From positions 982,711-1,046,710 of the forward strand of contig JACKCI010000001.1 in the NCBI GenBank assembly GCA_020634155.1: a stretch of DNA of 64,000 nt. The letters run 5' to 3'. Position 1 is the stretch's first letter. Each line of letters starts with the position of its first letter. A program made the translations under genes and the position numbers. Source of the stretch: Anaerolineales bacterium (lineage in GTDB: Bacteria; Chloroflexota; Anaerolineae; Aggregatilineales; J027). Below the pieces are notes generated by a model. The model worked only from the letters and a program-made list of their open reading frames with translations, was not told the origin of the DNA and searched no databases. Shown here piece after piece: positions 17,732 through 62,842 of this stretch.

Positions 17732-17742
17732 GTAAAGGTAAT

Positions 17743-17815
17743 GTCCCACTAGCTCAAAGGATAGAGCGTTGCCCTCCGGAGGCAAAGGCTGTAGGTTCGA
17801 ATCCTACGTGGGACG
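17743..17815 (+). tRNA. tRNA-Arg (anticodon CCG)
   Basis: Hand-folded cloverleaf, 73 nt: acceptor GTCCCAC/GTGGGAC, D stem GCTC/GAGC, anticodon stem TTGCC/GGCAA with loop CTCCGGA, T stem GTAGG/CCTAC with loop TTCGAAT. No encoded CCA. Confidence 0.9.
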
Positions 17816-17837
17816 TTTAGTCATTTGGGATATAATT

Positions 17838-19577
17838 ATGCCACCTTCCTTACAACAATTCTCACTAATTAAGAGTCATGTCAAACATTTTGAAGATGAA
17901 CTCAAGTTAACCTCTGAGAATGCCTTCTATTTCTTTGTTCTAGGTCTTATTCTTGATCTTCAAGAAGATGAAATTAAGGATTCAATTACAGATAACCAGT
18001 ATTTAGCCCAGCATTTGAGTGGTAGAGGGGGGCATGACCGAGGTATCGATGCAGTTTATATAGACGAAACAGGTGCAGTTCCTGTGGTACACCTATTCAA
18101 CTGCAAATACACATCCAAGTTTGACAAGACACGTAACAACCTTCCTGCTTCCGAAATTGACAAAATATTAGGGTTTGTGAAAGATCTAATCTCAAAAGAG
18201 CTAGATTTGAAAGAAACCGTTAACCCAATCTTAGCCAGTAAGGTACAAGAAATCTGGGATATTTTTGATAAACACAACCCAGAGTTCGAAATACACTTTT
18301 GTGCCAATTACTATAACGGATTTGAGGCACAAGAGAAAACGCGGTTCGAGAAAAGTGTGGGTAGTTACTCAGACTTCAAAATTAACTATCACTTAATGGA
18401 AGATTTACATAGTCGTGTTTTGCAGTCTGGAAAAAAAACTGTAAATGCAAGACTTAGGGCGATTGATAAGAATTATTTCGAGAAATCTGATGGGGATATT
18501 CGGGCACTTATTGTCGATGTTGAGGCAAGGGAGTTACTACGAATCGTAATCGACGATCAAGGGATTCGTAATGATACTGACTATGAAGATTACACAAAAC
18601 TTGTAAACTATTCTATTCTCGAAGATGCTTTTGAGAACAACATTAGAATCTATCTAAAACAGCGGTCAAAGATCAATAGAAATATTAAGAAGACGGCACT
18701 ATCAGATACTGATCACTTTAGATTTTTTTATTTCAATAACGGCATTACTATTACCTGCGATCGCTTTACTTACATGAAATCAGGTCGTGCTCCCATAATA
18801 GACCTTCAAAACCTACAAATCGTAAATGGGAGTCAAACAATACATGCCCTCTATGAAGCATTTAATGAAAATCCAAGACTTTTCGACAACATAGATGTAT
18901 TGGTTCGTATCTATGAAACGCAAAATGCGGAACTGAGTACAAGAATTGCGGAATATACTAATAGTCAGAATCCAGTAAAGAGTCGTGACATTCGCTCAAT
19001 TGATTATGTACAGCAAATCTTAGAGGCAGAGTTGGATGCGCTGGGGTTTTATTATGAAAGGAAGAAGAACCAATACTATTATCAACCTCGGGAAAAGAGG
19101 ATTGACGCAGAGAAAACAGGTCAAGTGTTATTTGCGTTCTATAATAAGATGCCACTTGAAGCCAAGAATGAGAAGCGGCTGATTTTTGGAGAAAAATATG
19201 AGGAGATATTCAATGATGAAATAAATGCTGATAAAGTTCTACTTCCGTATCGTTTATTTGAGTATATTGAAAAAAGGAAGGACACTAAGAAGCGTGAAAT
19301 GCTAGACACATCGGCAAATTTCGATGACGATTCGTTTATACTGGTAGCTTCCTATCATATTCTGTACATTATTGGAGAGATAGCAACAAAGAAAAATCTA
19401 GAATTTAGATTATCAAACCTTAGTGCATTTCAAATGCTGTACGATCAAGCAGTTGAGCTAGTTCGCAAGTTGATAAGCATTGAAAAGTCATCCGACGACA
19501 AGTATAACCACACTAAATTCTTTAAATCAATCAAACCAAAGAGATTGTTTGAAGAACACATTTTGTCAGAACTTTAG
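17838..19577 (+). CDS. AIPR-family abortive-infection (phage resistance) protein
   Basis: 580-aa ORF in a clearly AT-rich block. N-terminal GGHDRGIDAVYIDE...LFNCKY (nuclease-like) and central YFNNGITITC...IVNGSQTIHAL, which I recognise as the AIPR signature. ATG at 17838. The listed 17769 start runs through the tRNA. Confidence 0.65.
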   Translation: MPPSLQQFSLIKSHVKHFEDELKLTSENAFYFFVLGLILDLQEDEIKDSITDNQYLAQHLSGRGGHDRGIDAVYIDETGAVPVVHLFNCKYTSKFDKTRNNLPASEIDKILGFVKDLISKELDLKETVNPILASKVQEIWDIFDKHNPEFEIHFCANYYNGFEAQEKTRFEKSVGSYSDFKINYHLMEDLHSRVLQSGKKTVNARLRAIDKNYFEKSDGDIRALIVDVEARELLRIVIDDQGIRNDTDYEDYTKLVNYSILEDAFENNIRIYLKQRSKINRNIKKTALSDTDHFRFFYFNNGITITCDRFTYMKSGRAPIIDLQNLQIVNGSQTIHALYEAFNENPRLFDNIDVLVRIYETQNAELSTRIAEYTNSQNPVKSRDIRSIDYVQQILEAELDALGFYYERKKNQYYYQPREKRIDAEKTGQVLFAFYNKMPLEAKNEKRLIFGEKYEEIFNDEINADKVLLPYRLFEYIEKRKDTKKREMLDTSANFDDDSFILVASYHILYIIGEIATKKNLEFRLSNLSAFQMLYDQAVELVRKLISIEKSSDDKYNHTKFFKSIKPKRLFEEHILSEL

Positions 19578-19658
19578 AAAAACGTTGGGTCGTTATTTCT
19601 ACCCACAGTCCCCTTTTCTTCCCAATTATATGAATCTCCGCCTTCACCTATCCAACTA

Positions 19659-19701
19659 GCTAGGTCAAGAACTAGTCGTGAAGCCAATAGATTGACCTAG
19701 C
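19659..19701. repeat. Perfect 10-bp inverted repeat with 23-nt spacer in the non-coding tail of the islet
   Basis: GCTAGGTCAA (19659-19668) and TTGACCTAGC (19692-19701). The right arm contains a TTGACC -35-like hexamer. Confidence 0.6.
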
Positions 19702-19907
19702 AAATTGCTATATGCTTATATTACGAACATTTGTCTGAGGTGGTGGAGATAAATTGACTGATGCGTATCAAAGTTCCAGAAATGAAATCTCTGATCTTGC
19801 CTTATTGATTGGGCTTCGCTCTAAAGGTTCAAGTATCCATGGTTTTTCATCAGTCAAAAAGACTCCACTACCTTGTCTGAGCCATTGATGCACAAGGAAC
19901 TCCACTT

Positions 19908-56531: not shown

Positions 56532-57056
56532 ATGTCTAATCAACGTAGCACAACTAAACAACAGGAGGAACAAAAGAAAGCGGCCCCTAGCCGCACGTCC
56601 AAGACCACGACCAAAGCTGATGATACACCGAAAACGCCGCCCAAGAAACTGCCCAATGATTCCGAGTTGCTGGTCGAACTGGGGCGGAGACTGCTTGCCA
56701 ACCGCAAATATGGGGAGGCCCGCGCCCATTATGAAAAAGCGCTGCCCCTCACTCAAGACCCCCTAACACGCGCACGCATCCTGAACAACTTGGGGCTGAT
56801 TGAGCGCAACACCAACCAGCTAGAGGCCGCCGAGGGTTACTATCAACAGGCCCTTGACCTCTGGCAACGCTATGGCGATTTGGCGGGGGAGGCAACAACG
56901 CTCTATAACCTCGCGCAGGCCCTGAAGACGCTCAAACGCCATGATGAGGCCTATGTTGCCATGCAGCGCTGTGTGGAACTCGACATGCGCTTGCAGCACC
57001 CCGATTTGAAGCAGGACAAGGCATTCTTGGTGGAATTGGAGAAAGCCACTGCCTAG
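56532..57056 (+). CDS. TPR repeat protein with basic N-terminal tail
   Basis: Lys/Thr-rich N-terminus, then TPR-like repeats (GEARAHYEKALPL...; AAEGYYQQALDLWQRYGD; ATTLYNLAQALKTL). Confidence 0.7.
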   Translation: MSNQRSTTKQQEEQKKAAPSRTSKTTTKADDTPKTPPKKLPNDSELLVELGRRLLANRKYGEARAHYEKALPLTQDPLTRARILNNLGLIERNTNQLEAAEGYYQQALDLWQRYGDLAGEATTLYNLAQALKTLKRHDEAYVAMQRCVELDMRLQHPDLKQDKAFLVELEKATA

Positions 57057-57123
57057 GTCTTGGGTTATGCGCGATAGCGCGAGGGCCATCCATTCGTTGA
57101 TAAATGAAGGATCGTCAATCGCG

Positions 57124-57375
57124 TTTCGACGTGCTACGGGGTGATTGGTTAGTCTCGCAAATGGACAAGGTCGATGGAGGCTCGACGTGCTGTGGGCTAA
57201 AGCCCAAAGTTAGAGCGTTTACGGCGTACCCAAGCGCTTTTAACCGCGTCCTTTAGGGCGCGGCACCACCCCATCTCGAATACCCGCTTATATGCGAGAC
57301 TGACCAATCATGGCGCGGTACGTCGAACATCCATCGACCCGTGCCTGTTAACGAGACTAACCAATCACCCCTACG
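57124..57375. repeat. Nested inverted-repeat element: candidate structured RNA or MITE-like element
   Basis: Outer arms are perfect 20 nt: GGGGTGATTGGTTAGTCTCG (57138-57157) and its reverse complement (57352-57371). Inner arms are 22 nt, 57169-57190 and 57318-57339, with 19/22 complementary. A further reverse copy of the TGATTGGTYAGTCTCGC module lies at 57294-57310. The TCGACGTGCTRYGG module is repeated at 57126-57139 and 57182-57195. The ORF track lists no ORF of 60 aa or more lying within 57090-57389. Confidence 0.6.
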
Positions 57376-57455
57376 CGAGAATGGCGTATTCATGCGGTTT
57401 TCGCCCTACCCCTCCTAAAAACCCGATTTTGGGCGATTCGCGCCGCTACGCGGCG

Positions 57456-57476
57456 GCGGCGTGACAAGCACGCCGC
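57456..57476 (-). terminator. GC-rich hairpin about 25 nt downstream of the TIR-gene stop
   Basis: GCGGCGTG-ACAAG-CACGCCGC, an 8-bp stem. No adjacent U-tract, so terminator function is uncertain. Confidence 0.3.
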
Positions 57477-57498
57477 ACAGAGAACAGAGGTCAGAGGG

Positions 57499-59181
57499 TC
57501 AGGGAGATGGGGGACGCACACAAACCACCCGACAACCCCCGTAGCTGAGACGAGAGCTCGGGCTGGCGAGGTTGCGGACGGCGGCGCAGGCATTGAGGTT
57601 GCCGTAGTGGCTCCACGACCCACCGCGCAGCACCCGACTATTAGTGTTTAATATGTCTAATTTATCGGGTTCACCGTACTCATTGAGGCACCACTCCCAC
57701 ACATTCCCATACATATCCATTACCCCATAGGGTGATTGCCCTTGAGGGTAAAGTCCAACCGCCGTTGTCTGCTCCAAATAATATGGCCCAACACCAGTAT
57801 TCTTTTCATCAATATTGGCATAGCCGCTGATATACTCATCCCCCCAAGGATAAACGCGCCCGTCTGTCCCGCGTGCCGCCTTCTCCCATTCCTGCTCAGT
57901 GGGCAAACGCACAGGCCATGTCAGCGGATTTGTCCAATCCGGCGTAGGATAGCGACCCTTGGCAATCAGTTTGGCTGACCACCATCGGCAGAAGGCAATG
58001 GCGTCGAACCAACTCATGCGCTCTCTGGGATGATTCCAATATTTGAAGGCTTGCTCTCCAGATTGTTGATGATGCCCATCGGGAATCGCCAGCCCCTGCC
58101 ACCAGTCAGGGTTGGTAAAGCCAGCCGGGTCATCTATGAAGGTCTGGAATTGGGCATAGGTGATGGGATAGCGGCTGATGTAGTAGGTTGACAGGGGTGA
58201 GTGCTTGCTATCTTGATAAATCCACTCCCCATCGTCGGGTATCTCCACCCAATCAATCTCCGGCAGGCCATCCTTAACCCCCACCCCATGACGCGGGTCG
58301 CCCAACTCACTCAAGCGGCGTCCGGCTTCGGCGCGTTCTGGCGGGGGGATGGTCGGGTCACTGATGATTCGCAGCAAGGGCAGTGTTGGATTAAAGCGTA
58401 CATTCAAGCCAGCAGGGTCATAACTCGTGGCGTATTCCGCCCAGAAGTCCGTCAAAATATCCCACATATAGGCGGGGTCTTCATAATCGGCCTGTGCCAG
58501 AATGCCCTTGTAGTCCTGCTCAATAACCACCATCTGCTCGGCTTCCTGCACATAGACATCGAGCCGAAAGCCACGCGGCACCTTCTTGCCCCCTTGAATC
58601 TGCCGCAACAAGGACAACGCTACCGCCCACTGATTGGCCCCGCGTGCTTGATAGAACTGCTGCACAAGGTCTTGGGGGTTGGCGTGGCTGGTCGGTGCGG
58701 GGGTGCCACTGGCGACTTGGGCGGGTGCGCCGTTGGGGTTGGCGGGAGCGTGCGGGGCAGCGCTGGCTGGCACCACCTTAGCTTGATAGATACCGCCCAC
58801 CAAGCCCGCAACGGCAGCGGGTGTTGGCCCATCCGAGAAATCGGCAATCTGGAAGCGGCTAATGGCTTCCGGTGGGTGGATGTTGGTCTGCAACTTGACT
58901 GGCACGATGGGCCTGCCGAGCAAGACAGCCTGTTGGAACTCCCACTGGCACCATTGCGAGGCCAATGATTCAGGCGACAGGGCATAGACAAAGGCTTCAC
59001 AGGCTTCGATGGCGCGGAGGAGTTCGGCCTGCCAATCTTGGCCGGGCAGAAGGGCGTGGTCAAACCAAGGCTCATGGCCGGACCGCCGCAAAATCTCAAC
59101 TATTTGGCTCACCTGAAAATAATCGACGCGGGCATAACTAATAAATAAGCGCACAGTAGCCTCCAGTTCGTGGTTAATCAT
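57499..59181 (-). CDS. TIR domain protein fused to FGE-sulfatase (SUMF1/formylglycine-generating-enzyme-like) domain
   Basis: The N-terminus has FISYARVD and SQWCQWEF (Glu81). A Pro/Ala-rich and helical middle follows. The C-terminus has YPWGD, NVWEWC and RGGSW, characteristic of FGE-sulfatase domains. Confidence 0.85.
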   Translation of the reverse strand: MINHELEATVRLFISYARVDYFQVSQIVEILRRSGHEPWFDHALLPGQDWQAELLRAIEACEAFVYALSPESLASQWCQWEFQQAVLLGRPIVPVKLQTNIHPPEAISRFQIADFSDGPTPAAVAGLVGGIYQAKVVPASAAPHAPANPNGAPAQVASGTPAPTSHANPQDLVQQFYQARGANQWAVALSLLRQIQGGKKVPRGFRLDVYVQEAEQMVVIEQDYKGILAQADYEDPAYMWDILTDFWAEYATSYDPAGLNVRFNPTLPLLRIISDPTIPPPERAEAGRRLSELGDPRHGVGVKDGLPEIDWVEIPDDGEWIYQDSKHSPLSTYYISRYPITYAQFQTFIDDPAGFTNPDWWQGLAIPDGHHQQSGEQAFKYWNHPRERMSWFDAIAFCRWWSAKLIAKGRYPTPDWTNPLTWPVRLPTEQEWEKAARGTDGRVYPWGDEYISGYANIDEKNTGVGPYYLEQTTAVGLYPQGQSPYGVMDMYGNVWEWCLNEYGEPDKLDILNTNSRVLRGGSWSHYGNLNACAAVRNLASPSSRLSYGGCRVVCVRPPSP

Positions 59182-59207
59182 AGCACGGCCTTAGCGCCCT
59201 GCAAACG

Positions 59208-59215
59208 TGTATAAT
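59208..59215 (+). promoter_or_regulatory. Extended -10 promoter element upstream of the DUF4058 gene
   Basis: TGTATAAT (TGnTATAAT) at 59208-59215 in the 55-nt divergent intergenic region. RBS AGGAGG at 59222-59227. Confidence 0.4.
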
Positions 59216-59236: not shown

Positions 59237-60082
59237 ATGCCCGATGTGTCGCAAGCCTATATTGACCATTTGAAACAAGGCCCCTTCCCCCAACACCTTG
59301 ACCCTTGGGTAGAAATTGGGCGCTATTTTCAGCAATTGCACAGCGAAATCATCAGCCATTTGCTGGGGCAAATCGTCACACCCTTGCTGCGGATGGGCTA
59401 TTATGTCGGGCGCGAGGCCAGCCTCCAGATTGTCGAAAGCAGCAAACCCGACCTCTATATCCAGAACACGCAAGACCCAACAACACCCATCCAAGCATGG
59501 GATTATGGGCAGGCCACCGCGGCAGTCATGGCGGAGCCGGGCGTGGCGTTGACCAACACTGAGCCAGACCTAGACGCGCTCTATATTCGAGAAGTGGCGG
59601 GTGGGCAAGTCGTCACCATCGTGGAGGTCGTTTCCCCACGCAACAAGAACGAACTCCCCTTGATTGAGCGCTACCAAACGCGCCGCCTTGCCTATCTCGC
59701 CCAACATATTCATATTATGGAAATCGACCTAACGCGCTCAGTCAAGCGGTTGGTCAATGACCCCTTGACAGATGGCTACCCTTACCATGTGGCGGTTCAC
59801 TTGCACGACCAAGCCCCACGCTTGATTGGCATGGCCTTCGGGGAACCCCTCAAACGCTGCGCCATTCCTTTGCAGGGGGATGTGGTGCCTGTAGAATTGG
59901 AGGCCGCTTATCGGCATGCCTACCAGCATCCCGTCTTGGCGCTGCATATTCACAATGAAATCGGCTACAGCATGAATGACCTGCCCTTTCCCTCGCTGTT
60001 GACCGATGAGCAAAAGCAGGGGCTAGGTGCAGCAGTGGCGGCATGGCAAATCAACTTAGAACGTCTACACCCGCCGTCATGA
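59237..60082 (+). CDS. DUF4058-like protein (Uma2/restriction-endonuclease-like fold suspected)
   Basis: N-terminus GPFPQHLDPWVEIGRYFQQLHSEII. KPDLYIQ...VVTIVEVVSPRNK...MEIDLTRS gives a D...E.(x)K-type arrangement. ATG at 59237. Confidence 0.65.
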   Translation: MPDVSQAYIDHLKQGPFPQHLDPWVEIGRYFQQLHSEIISHLLGQIVTPLLRMGYYVGREASLQIVESSKPDLYIQNTQDPTTPIQAWDYGQATAAVMAEPGVALTNTEPDLDALYIREVAGGQVVTIVEVVSPRNKNELPLIERYQTRRLAYLAQHIHIMEIDLTRSVKRLVNDPLTDGYPYHVAVHLHDQAPRLIGMAFGEPLKRCAIPLQGDVVPVELEAAYRHAYQHPVLALHIHNEIGYSMNDLPFPSLLTDEQKQGLGAAVAAWQINLERLHPPS

Positions 60083-60112: not shown

Positions 60113-60403
60113 ATGACCATCAATACCCTCGACCAGTTAAAACAAGCCATCAACCAATTGACGCCCGATGAATTGACCCAACTTCAGCAGCATATCGACG
60201 CTCACCGCCAGCATTTGCAGCATCTGGTGGATGACCCCAACGCATGGATGGCACAACTAGACTCTGCCGTTGCCGCTATCCGTGAGGGGTTATCGGAAGA
60301 GGAAATTCAAGATATGACCGATGCCATGAACGCTGAGTATGTTAATCCGCAAGACCTGCATCAATTAGAGTCTGCATCCAAGAAGGCCAAGGTCAAGCCA
60401 TGA
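60113..60403 (+). CDS. Putative antitoxin partner of the PIN toxin (family not recognised)
   Basis: 96-aa helical, acidic protein with a basic tail (SKKAKVKP). Its stop overlaps the PIN gene start (ATGA). No AbrB, RHH or Phd motif that I can recognise. Confidence 0.5.
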   Translation: MTINTLDQLKQAINQLTPDELTQLQQHIDAHRQHLQHLVDDPNAWMAQLDSAVAAIREGLSEEEIQDMTDAMNAEYVNPQDLHQLESASKKAKVKP

Positions 60404-60804
60404 TGTACATTTTGGATACAAATGTCATTGCGGATTTAATTCATCTCAACGCACAAGTACGCGCCAATCTTGCAGCCGCACGGCAGGCCAATGCTGACAT
60501 AATGATGACGAGGCCCGTCTATTACGAAGTGGTGCGGGGTTTAGTTAAGCAGCAAGCAACCCGCAAACTCCGCATCTTTCGCCAAGACCTTCTGCCATTA
60601 ATGAAACAGGAACCGTTGCAAGACGAAGACTGGGAACAAGCCGCGCATTTCTGGGCTGCTGCCGTCAGCAAAGGCCGCCAACTATCCGACATTGACCTCT
60701 TGTTAGCGGCGATGGCGCATCGGCGGGGAGCTATACTCATCAGTAGCGATACCGACTTTGACGCCCTGACCATTCAACGACAGGATTGGCGGCTCGCCAC
60801 CTAA
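60400..60804 (+). CDS. vapC: PIN-domain ribonuclease toxin (VapC-like)
   Basis: MYILDTNV (Asp), YYEVVRG (Glu), IDLLLAAMA (Asp), SSDTDFD (Asp). 134 aa. Confidence 0.85.
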   Translation: MMYILDTNVIADLIHLNAQVRANLAAARQANADIMMTRPVYYEVVRGLVKQQATRKLRIFRQDLLPLMKQEPLQDEDWEQAAHFWAAAVSKGRQLSDIDLLLAAMAHRRGAILISSDTDFDALTIQRQDWRLAT

Positions 60805-62778: not shown

Positions 62779-62798
62779 TTTGTAGCTCAAAAAACAAA

Positions 62799-62829
62799 AC
62801 GCCCGATAGATTACTGTCGGGCGTTTTTC
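62799..62829. terminator. Bidirectional rho-independent terminator between convergent genes
   Basis: ACGCCCGA-(10-nt loop)-TCGGGCGT, flanked by AAAAAACAAA upstream and TTTTTC downstream. Confidence 0.7.
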
Positions 62830-62842
62830 TTTGGCTCCCTAA

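Follow-up and report, generated by a model that had tools for sequence, protein, structure and literature searches.

A putative MITE-like palindromic element between convergent TPR and TIR-FGE-sulfatase genes of an Anaerolineales genome

In an Anaerolineales MAG, the TPR gene and the TIR-FGE-sulfatase gene converge on a spacer that contains a non-coding 232-bp imperfect palindrome, bordered on both sides by the pentamer CTACG. We read it as a MITE-like, non-autonomous transposable element of unassigned family, or as what remains of one after decay, that inserted at a CTACG site, and we give this reading about an even chance of being correct (probability roughly 0.5). The reading draws on the terminal inverted repeats, the flanking direct repeat, the size of 232 bp, and open reading frames of at most 50 aa without homologues. 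The whole stretch of DNA that was analysed, 64 kb in length, is referred to below as the window, and all coordinates are window positions.

Results and discussion

Location of the element

The TPR gene (56532–57056, + strand) and the TIR-FGE-sulfatase gene (57499–59181, − strand) converge on the element. The first-pass annotation had described the gap between them as much longer than a terminator requires and devoid of open reading frames of 60 aa or more within 57090–57389, and both statements hold: the TPR frame ends at 57056 and the TIR-FGE frame at 57499, leaving a spacer of 442 nt, and the longest frames in the interval are 50 aa (+ strand) and 46 aa (− strand). The NCBI protein accessions of the two products are consecutive (MCB9436252.1 for TPR and MCB9436253.1 for TIR), which suggests that the gap between them carries no annotated gene. 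A G+C-rich hairpin, GCGGCGTG-ACAAG-CACGCCGC, is present at 57456–57476, 22 nt downstream of the stop codon of TIR-FGE, and is not followed by a U-run. Diversity-generating retroelements often target the C-termini of FGE/C-type-lectin proteins using such hairpins (bioRxiv 10.1101/2023.09.22.558884). A diversity-generating retroelement target or a retron accessory was rejected here, as the window ORFs include no reverse transcriptase and the segment 57400–58000 has no repeat elsewhere in the window that could be the template repeat, which in a diversity-generating retroelement matches the 3′ end of the target.

Two other loci in the window were recorded. At 60113–60804, beside the DUF4058 and TIR-FGE genes, a small antitoxin-like ORF of 96 aa overlaps with the gene of a PIN-domain toxin (134 aa), and the two form a VapBC-like pair. 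An AbiU/AIPR abortive-infection gene (17769–19577) begins directly after a tRNA-Arg(CCG) gene, the sole tRNA/tmRNA match in the 64-kb window (at 17.7 kb). The A+T-rich spacer after the abortive-infection gene is 330 nt long and contains an inverted repeat of 26 nt (19738–19763 and 19848–19873). The region 17742–19907 may be a tRNA-associated defence islet.

Architecture of the palindrome

The element proper (57139–57370) is a single long imperfect palindrome whose centre of symmetry, (57138 + 57371)/2 = 57254.5, falls in the loop (57252–57255) of the central hairpin. Each arm is composed, from the outside inwards, of a 19–20-nt perfect terminus with the core TGATTGGTTAGTCTCG, a diverged 12–13-nt spacer, a hairpin of the form GTCGA-N7-TCGAC, and a second core. 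The left terminal inverted-repeat arm (57139–57189, + strand) contains the perfect 19-nt terminus GGGTGATTGGTTAGTCTCG with core B1 inside it (57142–57157, + strand), a 12-nt spacer, and the small hairpin GTCGA-TGGAGGC-TCGAC (57170–57186). The right arm (57320–57370, − strand) contains the small hairpin GTCGA-ACATCCA-TCGAC (57322–57338), a spacer, and the perfect 19-nt terminus with core B1′ (57352–57367). An extra internal core copy, designated as B2′ (TGATTGGTCAGTCTCG, 57295–57310, − strand), has a subterminal position in the right arm. Only there is the second core intact; its left equivalent at ~57196–57217 is degenerate. In a global alignment the arms are ~82% complementary over 51–52 nt with one indel. 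The diverged central part (57190–57294) holds a GGGC-TAAA-GCCC hairpin and the central hairpin.

The repeat structure described in the first-pass annotation was largely reproduced. Its perfect 20-nt outer arm (57138–57157 pairing with 57352–57371) was recovered and extends to 33 nt at 82%, and its second arm pair, complementary at 19 of 22 positions when counted by eye, is 90% complementary over 57169–57188 and 57320–57339. The central hairpin CCGCGTCC-TTTA-GGGCGCGG at 57244–57263, whose lone T:G pair is a wobble on the + strand only, and the GGGC-TAAA-GCCC hairpin at 57194–57205 are both present as described. The core motif reported to recur in reverse, TGATTGGTYAGTCTCG, is found exactly at 57142 (+), 57295 (−), and 57352 (−), all within the element; shuffled sequences gave a mean of 0.57 matches at ≤3 mismatches, compared with these three exact copies. 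For the module TCGACGTGCTRYGG, the copies at 57126 and 57182 stand, but the reverse copy proposed at about 57314–57327 matches at only 11 of 14 positions, and none was detected there at ≤2 mismatches.

In the left flank, a module designated as A1 (GTCAATCGCGTTTCGACGTG, 57114–57133, + strand) resembles the internal hairpin module, and its membership of the element is uncertain. It belongs to a direct repeat in which 57114–57140 is 74% identical to 57170–57196 at a spacing of 56 nt, and the two right-hand cores are spaced likewise. The similarity of the flank to the interior of the element was not significant once the duplicated 5-mer was excluded (p = 0.11). A model of four units, with two tandem 56-nt units in each arm, aligns and explains the 56/57-nt spacings; it was rejected on account of this p value and of its outermost left module, which lies outside the 5-bp duplication.

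Folding strength and authenticity

The element is the top-ranked inverted repeat in the whole 64-kb window, and an nhmmer comparison with its own reverse complement gave E = 2.6e-14 over 57133–57376. The z-scores of the RNA fold were −9.2 (+ strand) and −9.9 (− strand) and that of the DNA fold was −8.0, with 0 of 200 shuffled sequences folding as well.

The left half was found with 100% identity in same-strain short-read contigs from two other samples, to position 57161 in L096 and to 57237 in L097, and the palindrome is therefore no artefact of the host assembly. Both contigs are 3–7 kb long yet end within the palindrome, at distances of 105 and 181 nt from the TPR stop codon. Such ends are typical of repeated or heterogeneous sequence and give a hint of repetition. 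The right half was not recovered from same-strain short-read contigs when these were sought via the TIR-FGE, DUF4058, antitoxin-like, PIN, and MiaB products.

Flanking direct repeat

The pentamer CTACG at 57134–57138 is repeated identically at 57371–57375, and each copy abuts the perfect inverted repeat. The palindromic symmetry stops exactly at these bases and gives way to the direct repeat. Since CTACG lies directly outside the 19-nt perfect termini, the limits of the element proper were set at 57139 and 57370. In Monte-Carlo trials that allowed a boundary slack of ≤2 nt, direct repeats of ≥5 bp arose by chance with a probability of ~0.005. We regard the CTACG pair as a putative target-site duplication on the strength of its sequence and position; as it is one observation, it could also be a coincidence. 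The target-site-duplication signature at this element is a new observation of the present analysis. The empty site is predicted to read ...TTTCGACGTGCTACGCGAGAATGG....

Coding capacity and RNA structure

The element has no coding capacity. The 46-aa and 50-aa frames were absent from a collection of 15 billion proteins and had no homologues among collections of 5.8 and 1.8 billion proteins. No promoter-like site was detected in the spacer, and no terminator-like site, for which the criterion is a G+C-rich stem-loop with a U-run after it, was detected on either strand of 57057–57498.

The first-pass annotation had offered two interpretations, a non-autonomous mobile element or a dedicated structured RNA. 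The first gains from the CTACG pair, the non-coding length of 232 bp, and the strain-variable segment in which the element lies, while the second found no favour in the RNA tests. In the Rfam check there was no match at gathering thresholds, and a single 10-bit chance match appeared at E ≤10. Strand-specific structure was not found either, with 12 G-U pairs on the + strand versus 11 on the − strand and minimum free energies of −138 versus −141 kcal/mol. A sequence that is palindromic on both strands and has no G-U strand bias fits a repeat at the DNA level, not a strand-specific RNA. The switch-like alternative pairing proposed for the left arm was not borne out thermodynamically: the equilibrium pairing probability is 0.999 for B1:B1′ and ~0 for B1:B2′, and the alternative fold is ~44 kcal/mol worse. 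Riboswitch-like alternative pairing was rejected on these probabilities; the second apparent partner arises because the core motif is repeated inside the right arm.

Comparison with related genomes

At the syntenic loci of two distant relatives within the Anaerolineales, L231 (TIR-FGE, 52% amino acid identity) and L232 (MiaB, 81%; GH114, 69%; sigma factor, 61%; TIR-FGE, 48%), the linkage of gltX and TIR-FGE is kept. The spacers 3′ of their TIR-FGE genes are 117–133 nt long and have no similarity to the element, which is therefore no conserved companion of TIR-FGE. The linkage retained at both loci makes the TIR-FGE gene look like an old resident of the neighbourhood and not like a recently acquired cassette. 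The block of MiaB and gltX is inverted relative to L232, and in L231 an AF2212-like/PIN pair lies directly 3′ of the TIR-FGE gene.

Two close relatives, L236 and L237 (93.6% and 95.7% nucleotide identity), are collinear with the window up to 57057. Beyond this point, the segment 57058–59203, comprising the element and the TIR-FGE gene, is swapped for 134 unrelated nucleotides with a canonical terminator, GGGCAGGTCAGCACCTGTCCGTTTT, so that the close relatives are devoid of the entire 2.1-kb segment rather than of the element alone. The possibility that the flanks of the element are a remnant of this 134-nt spacer was discarded, as the two share no similarity. The DUF4058 and PIN toxin genes (59260–60076 and ~60340–60785 in the window) are also missing from L236 and L237. 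The ribosome-binding site and first codons of DUF4058 are left in both genomes, which indicates that the deletion occurred in the relatives. The locus, with its TIR-FGE, DUF4058, and VapC-like PIN genes, is a small strain-variable islet.

Three further short-read contigs, each from a different sample (L233, L234, and L235), share their terminal base, which lies 199 nt beyond the 3′ end of a gene homologous to TIR-FGE (P0004, 43% identity). The hairpin GGGCGAGTCTGAGACGTCGCCCCTA is located at these ends and hints at a repeat or variable junction in this place too.

Search for further copies

No second copy was found in the 64-kb host window or in ~45 kb of sequence from relatives, either by blastn or with an nhmmer profile of the repeat units. 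An exact-core scan of one genome each for 185,579 species returned 95 stretches with chance 16–20-mers, none of which extends. The same scan of viral contigs returned 13 with chance 16-mers, again none extending, and that of metagenome contigs returned at least 120 with chance 16-mers, none extending among the matches listed. The best two extensions among the matches listed, L202 (28/31, within a coding region) and L207 (24/26), were taken as chance similarities. Searches of plasmids and phages by blastn with the element and with one arm yielded no meaningful match. Among the ~55 window ORFs scanned, there is no transposase, integrase, or reverse transcriptase.

Comparison with known elements

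Among the kinds described so far, the element comes closest to generic bacterial MITEs and, in its size and 5-bp duplication, to TIMEs (PMC13367494). MITEs measure 50–500 bp, and TIMEs of 209–256 bp make 5-bp direct repeats (PMC13367494). Bacterial MITEs such as Correia, RUP, and MITEAba12 resemble the present element in their size range (50–500 bp), absence of an ORF, terminal inverted repeats with a duplication, and capacity to form a long hairpin, as well as in their intergenic position and ability to end or stabilise neighbouring transcripts. The element differs in that one copy is documented, that it has no known partner IS, and that its composite arms of ~50 nt are unusually long.

TIMEs offer the closest match in dimensions (232 bp versus 209–256 bp), share the 5-bp direct repeat and a terminus starting with GGG(G), and have internal repeats that are potentially res-like. 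Both the length of the element and its direct repeat fall within the published definition of TIMEs, namely ~200–260 bp and 5-bp, sometimes 6-bp, repeats (PMC13367494). Three features set the element apart. It is chromosomal, in a member of Chloroflexota, and has no similarity to any plasmid-borne element. Reading the terminus as GGGG shifts the 5-bp flanks to GCTAC and TACGC, which do not match. The third concerns the termini: Tn3-family terminal repeats are ~38 bp long with a GGGG...TAAG consensus. Set against that consensus, the arms have no inner TAAG block, positions 31–38 being AGGTCGAT and CGGGTCGA. As this inner Tn3-type block is missing, the element was not filed as a TIME.

REP, REPIN, and BIME sequences, including the CGTC- and GTAG-tagged palindromes, are likewise extragenic, lie between convergent genes, and form inverted dimers of stem-loops, for which roles in termination and mRNA stabilisation have been proposed (PMC3733652). 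The present units fall outside the definitions of tagged REPs, no high copy number was seen in the 64-kb window, and a putative target-site duplication is present. The ERIC/IRU sequences of enterobacteria (127-bp imperfect palindromes) are comparable as long imperfect palindromes in transcribed intergenic DNA with variable internal segments. The element has no sequence relation to them and no detectable relatives, whereas ERIC sequences occur in many copies and are conserved between genera. Assignment to an IS200/IS605-type element is contradicted by the target-site duplication, and no R″/R′ core sites or array of an integron attC were discernible by eye.

Alternative explanations

Four other accounts of the palindrome were weighed, which rank in the order of a non-mobile insulator, a REP/REPIN-like repeat, a cluster of recombination or binding sites, and, least supported, a dedicated RNA. 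The first of them, unlikely in our estimate although the best placed of the four, holds that the palindrome evolved locally, never moved, and acts between TPR and TIR-FGE as an insulator or as a barrier to transcription from both sides. The position is suggestive, as the element lies between convergent genes, the 442-nt spacer offers neither of them a consensus terminator, and the canonical terminator directly after TPR in the close relatives is missing here. The stem is also very stable on both strands (−128 and −139 kcal/mol). However, a stem of ~100 pairs with repeated 16-nt cores exceeds the needs of termination by far, and is not followed by a U-run on either strand, and this account gives no reason for the 5-bp direct repeat at the flanks. 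The genome moreover contains compact canonical bidirectional terminators. An example is the intrinsic terminator at 62791–62832 (AAAACAAAACGCCCGATAG / CTGTCGGGCGTTTTTCTTT), in the spacer adjoining the 3′ end of gltX, which shows that such compact structures are in use in the host genome.

A host-wide, multi-copy extragenic palindrome of the REP/REPIN/BIME or ERIC type, possibly moved by a RAYT-type tyrosine transposase, is somewhat less probable again. An extragenic location 3′ of convergent ORFs and small head-to-head stem-loops that fold into a larger hairpin are typical features of REP dimers (PMC3733652), the assemblies of two samples break inside the element, and its small hairpins are adjoined by GTAG and CGTC tetranucleotides. 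REP sequences with GTAG or CGTC tags are stem-loops of 20–40 bp with an unpaired tag at one end, and the CGTC families have stems of 8–9 bp, loops of 4–5 nt, and an unpaired tag (PMC3733652). The hairpins of the element, in contrast, have a 5-bp stem and a 7-nt loop, with CGTC partly in the stem, and so differ from tagged REPs. One copy per 64 kb of a compact genome also compares poorly with dense REP families, and HUH/Y1 transposition proceeds without target-site duplication, yet a 5-bp duplication is seen here.

A clustering of sites for protein binding or recombination, similar to res/att sites or transposon ends and connected with the way in which the TIR-FGE segment is gained, lost, or rearranged, seems improbable to us. 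The 2.1-kb segment that the close relatives have exchanged does include the element, the conservation of the palindrome is blocky (16–20-nt cores and hairpin stems are kept while spacers have diverged, 20/20 versus 7/13), and res sites are present in some TIMEs (PMC13367494). The surroundings do not conform to such a cluster: no recombinase or transposase gene is nearby, no matching site occurs at the other segment boundary (59182–59210) or elsewhere in the segment, and the boundary of the variable segment at 57057/57058 is 81 nt away from the element.

A bolder version of the mobile reading ranks slightly lower still. The element could be the first copy seen of a new Chloroflexota non-autonomous family with composite multi-site ends and have a functional link to the turnover of defence genes: it would either mobilise or rearrange the TIR-FGE segment, as TIME-COMP structures do, or supply a cis-acting RNA or DNA hairpin needed by TIR-FGE; we hold this to be a slim prospect. 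Least probable of all, a dedicated structured non-coding RNA (regulator, antitoxin-like, or riboswitch-like) serving TIR-FGE would account for the very low folding energy, the G-U pair of the central hairpin that is valid on the + strand only, and the adjoining TIR-domain gene, but is opposed by the Rfam result even at E ≤10, the spacer free of promoter-like and terminator-like sites, the equal folding of both strands, the vanishing probability of the alternative pairing, the absence of the element beside the syntenic TIR-FGE genes of L231 and L232, and the lack of any homologous sequence for covariation in the collections scanned.

Proposed origin and present effect

If the palindrome is a MITE-like element, a transposase provided in trans would bind to the perfect 19-nt termini, the repeated 16-nt core, and the 5-bp-stem hairpins of each ~50-nt arm, and would cut with a stagger of 5 bp. 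Today the element probably has a passive role, as a hairpin barrier between TPR and TIR. Read-through transcripts from either convergent gene could fold as a stem of ~100 pairs and thereby form a 3′-end barrier or insulator that takes the place of the canonical post-TPR terminator of the close relatives.

Several observations weigh against the MITE-like reading. A single copy was seen within the scanned sequences, the ~55 ORFs scanned in the window include no transposase, the arms are only ~82% identical to each other, and the 5-bp repeat can be a coincidence. In addition, the flank at 57114–57133 is weakly similar to the internal module, which goes beyond a simple single-insertion model.

Conclusions

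The present evidence gives no sign of a new mechanism. To our knowledge, the MITE families of Anaerolineales are essentially uncatalogued. If more copies turned up next to other accessory genes, this would suggest that the family takes part in the shuffling of defence genes. If the MITE-like reading is true, the palindrome is ordinary selfish DNA; it would explain the 442-nt gap and make an RNA gene superfluous there, and the value of the finding would lie chiefly in annotation.
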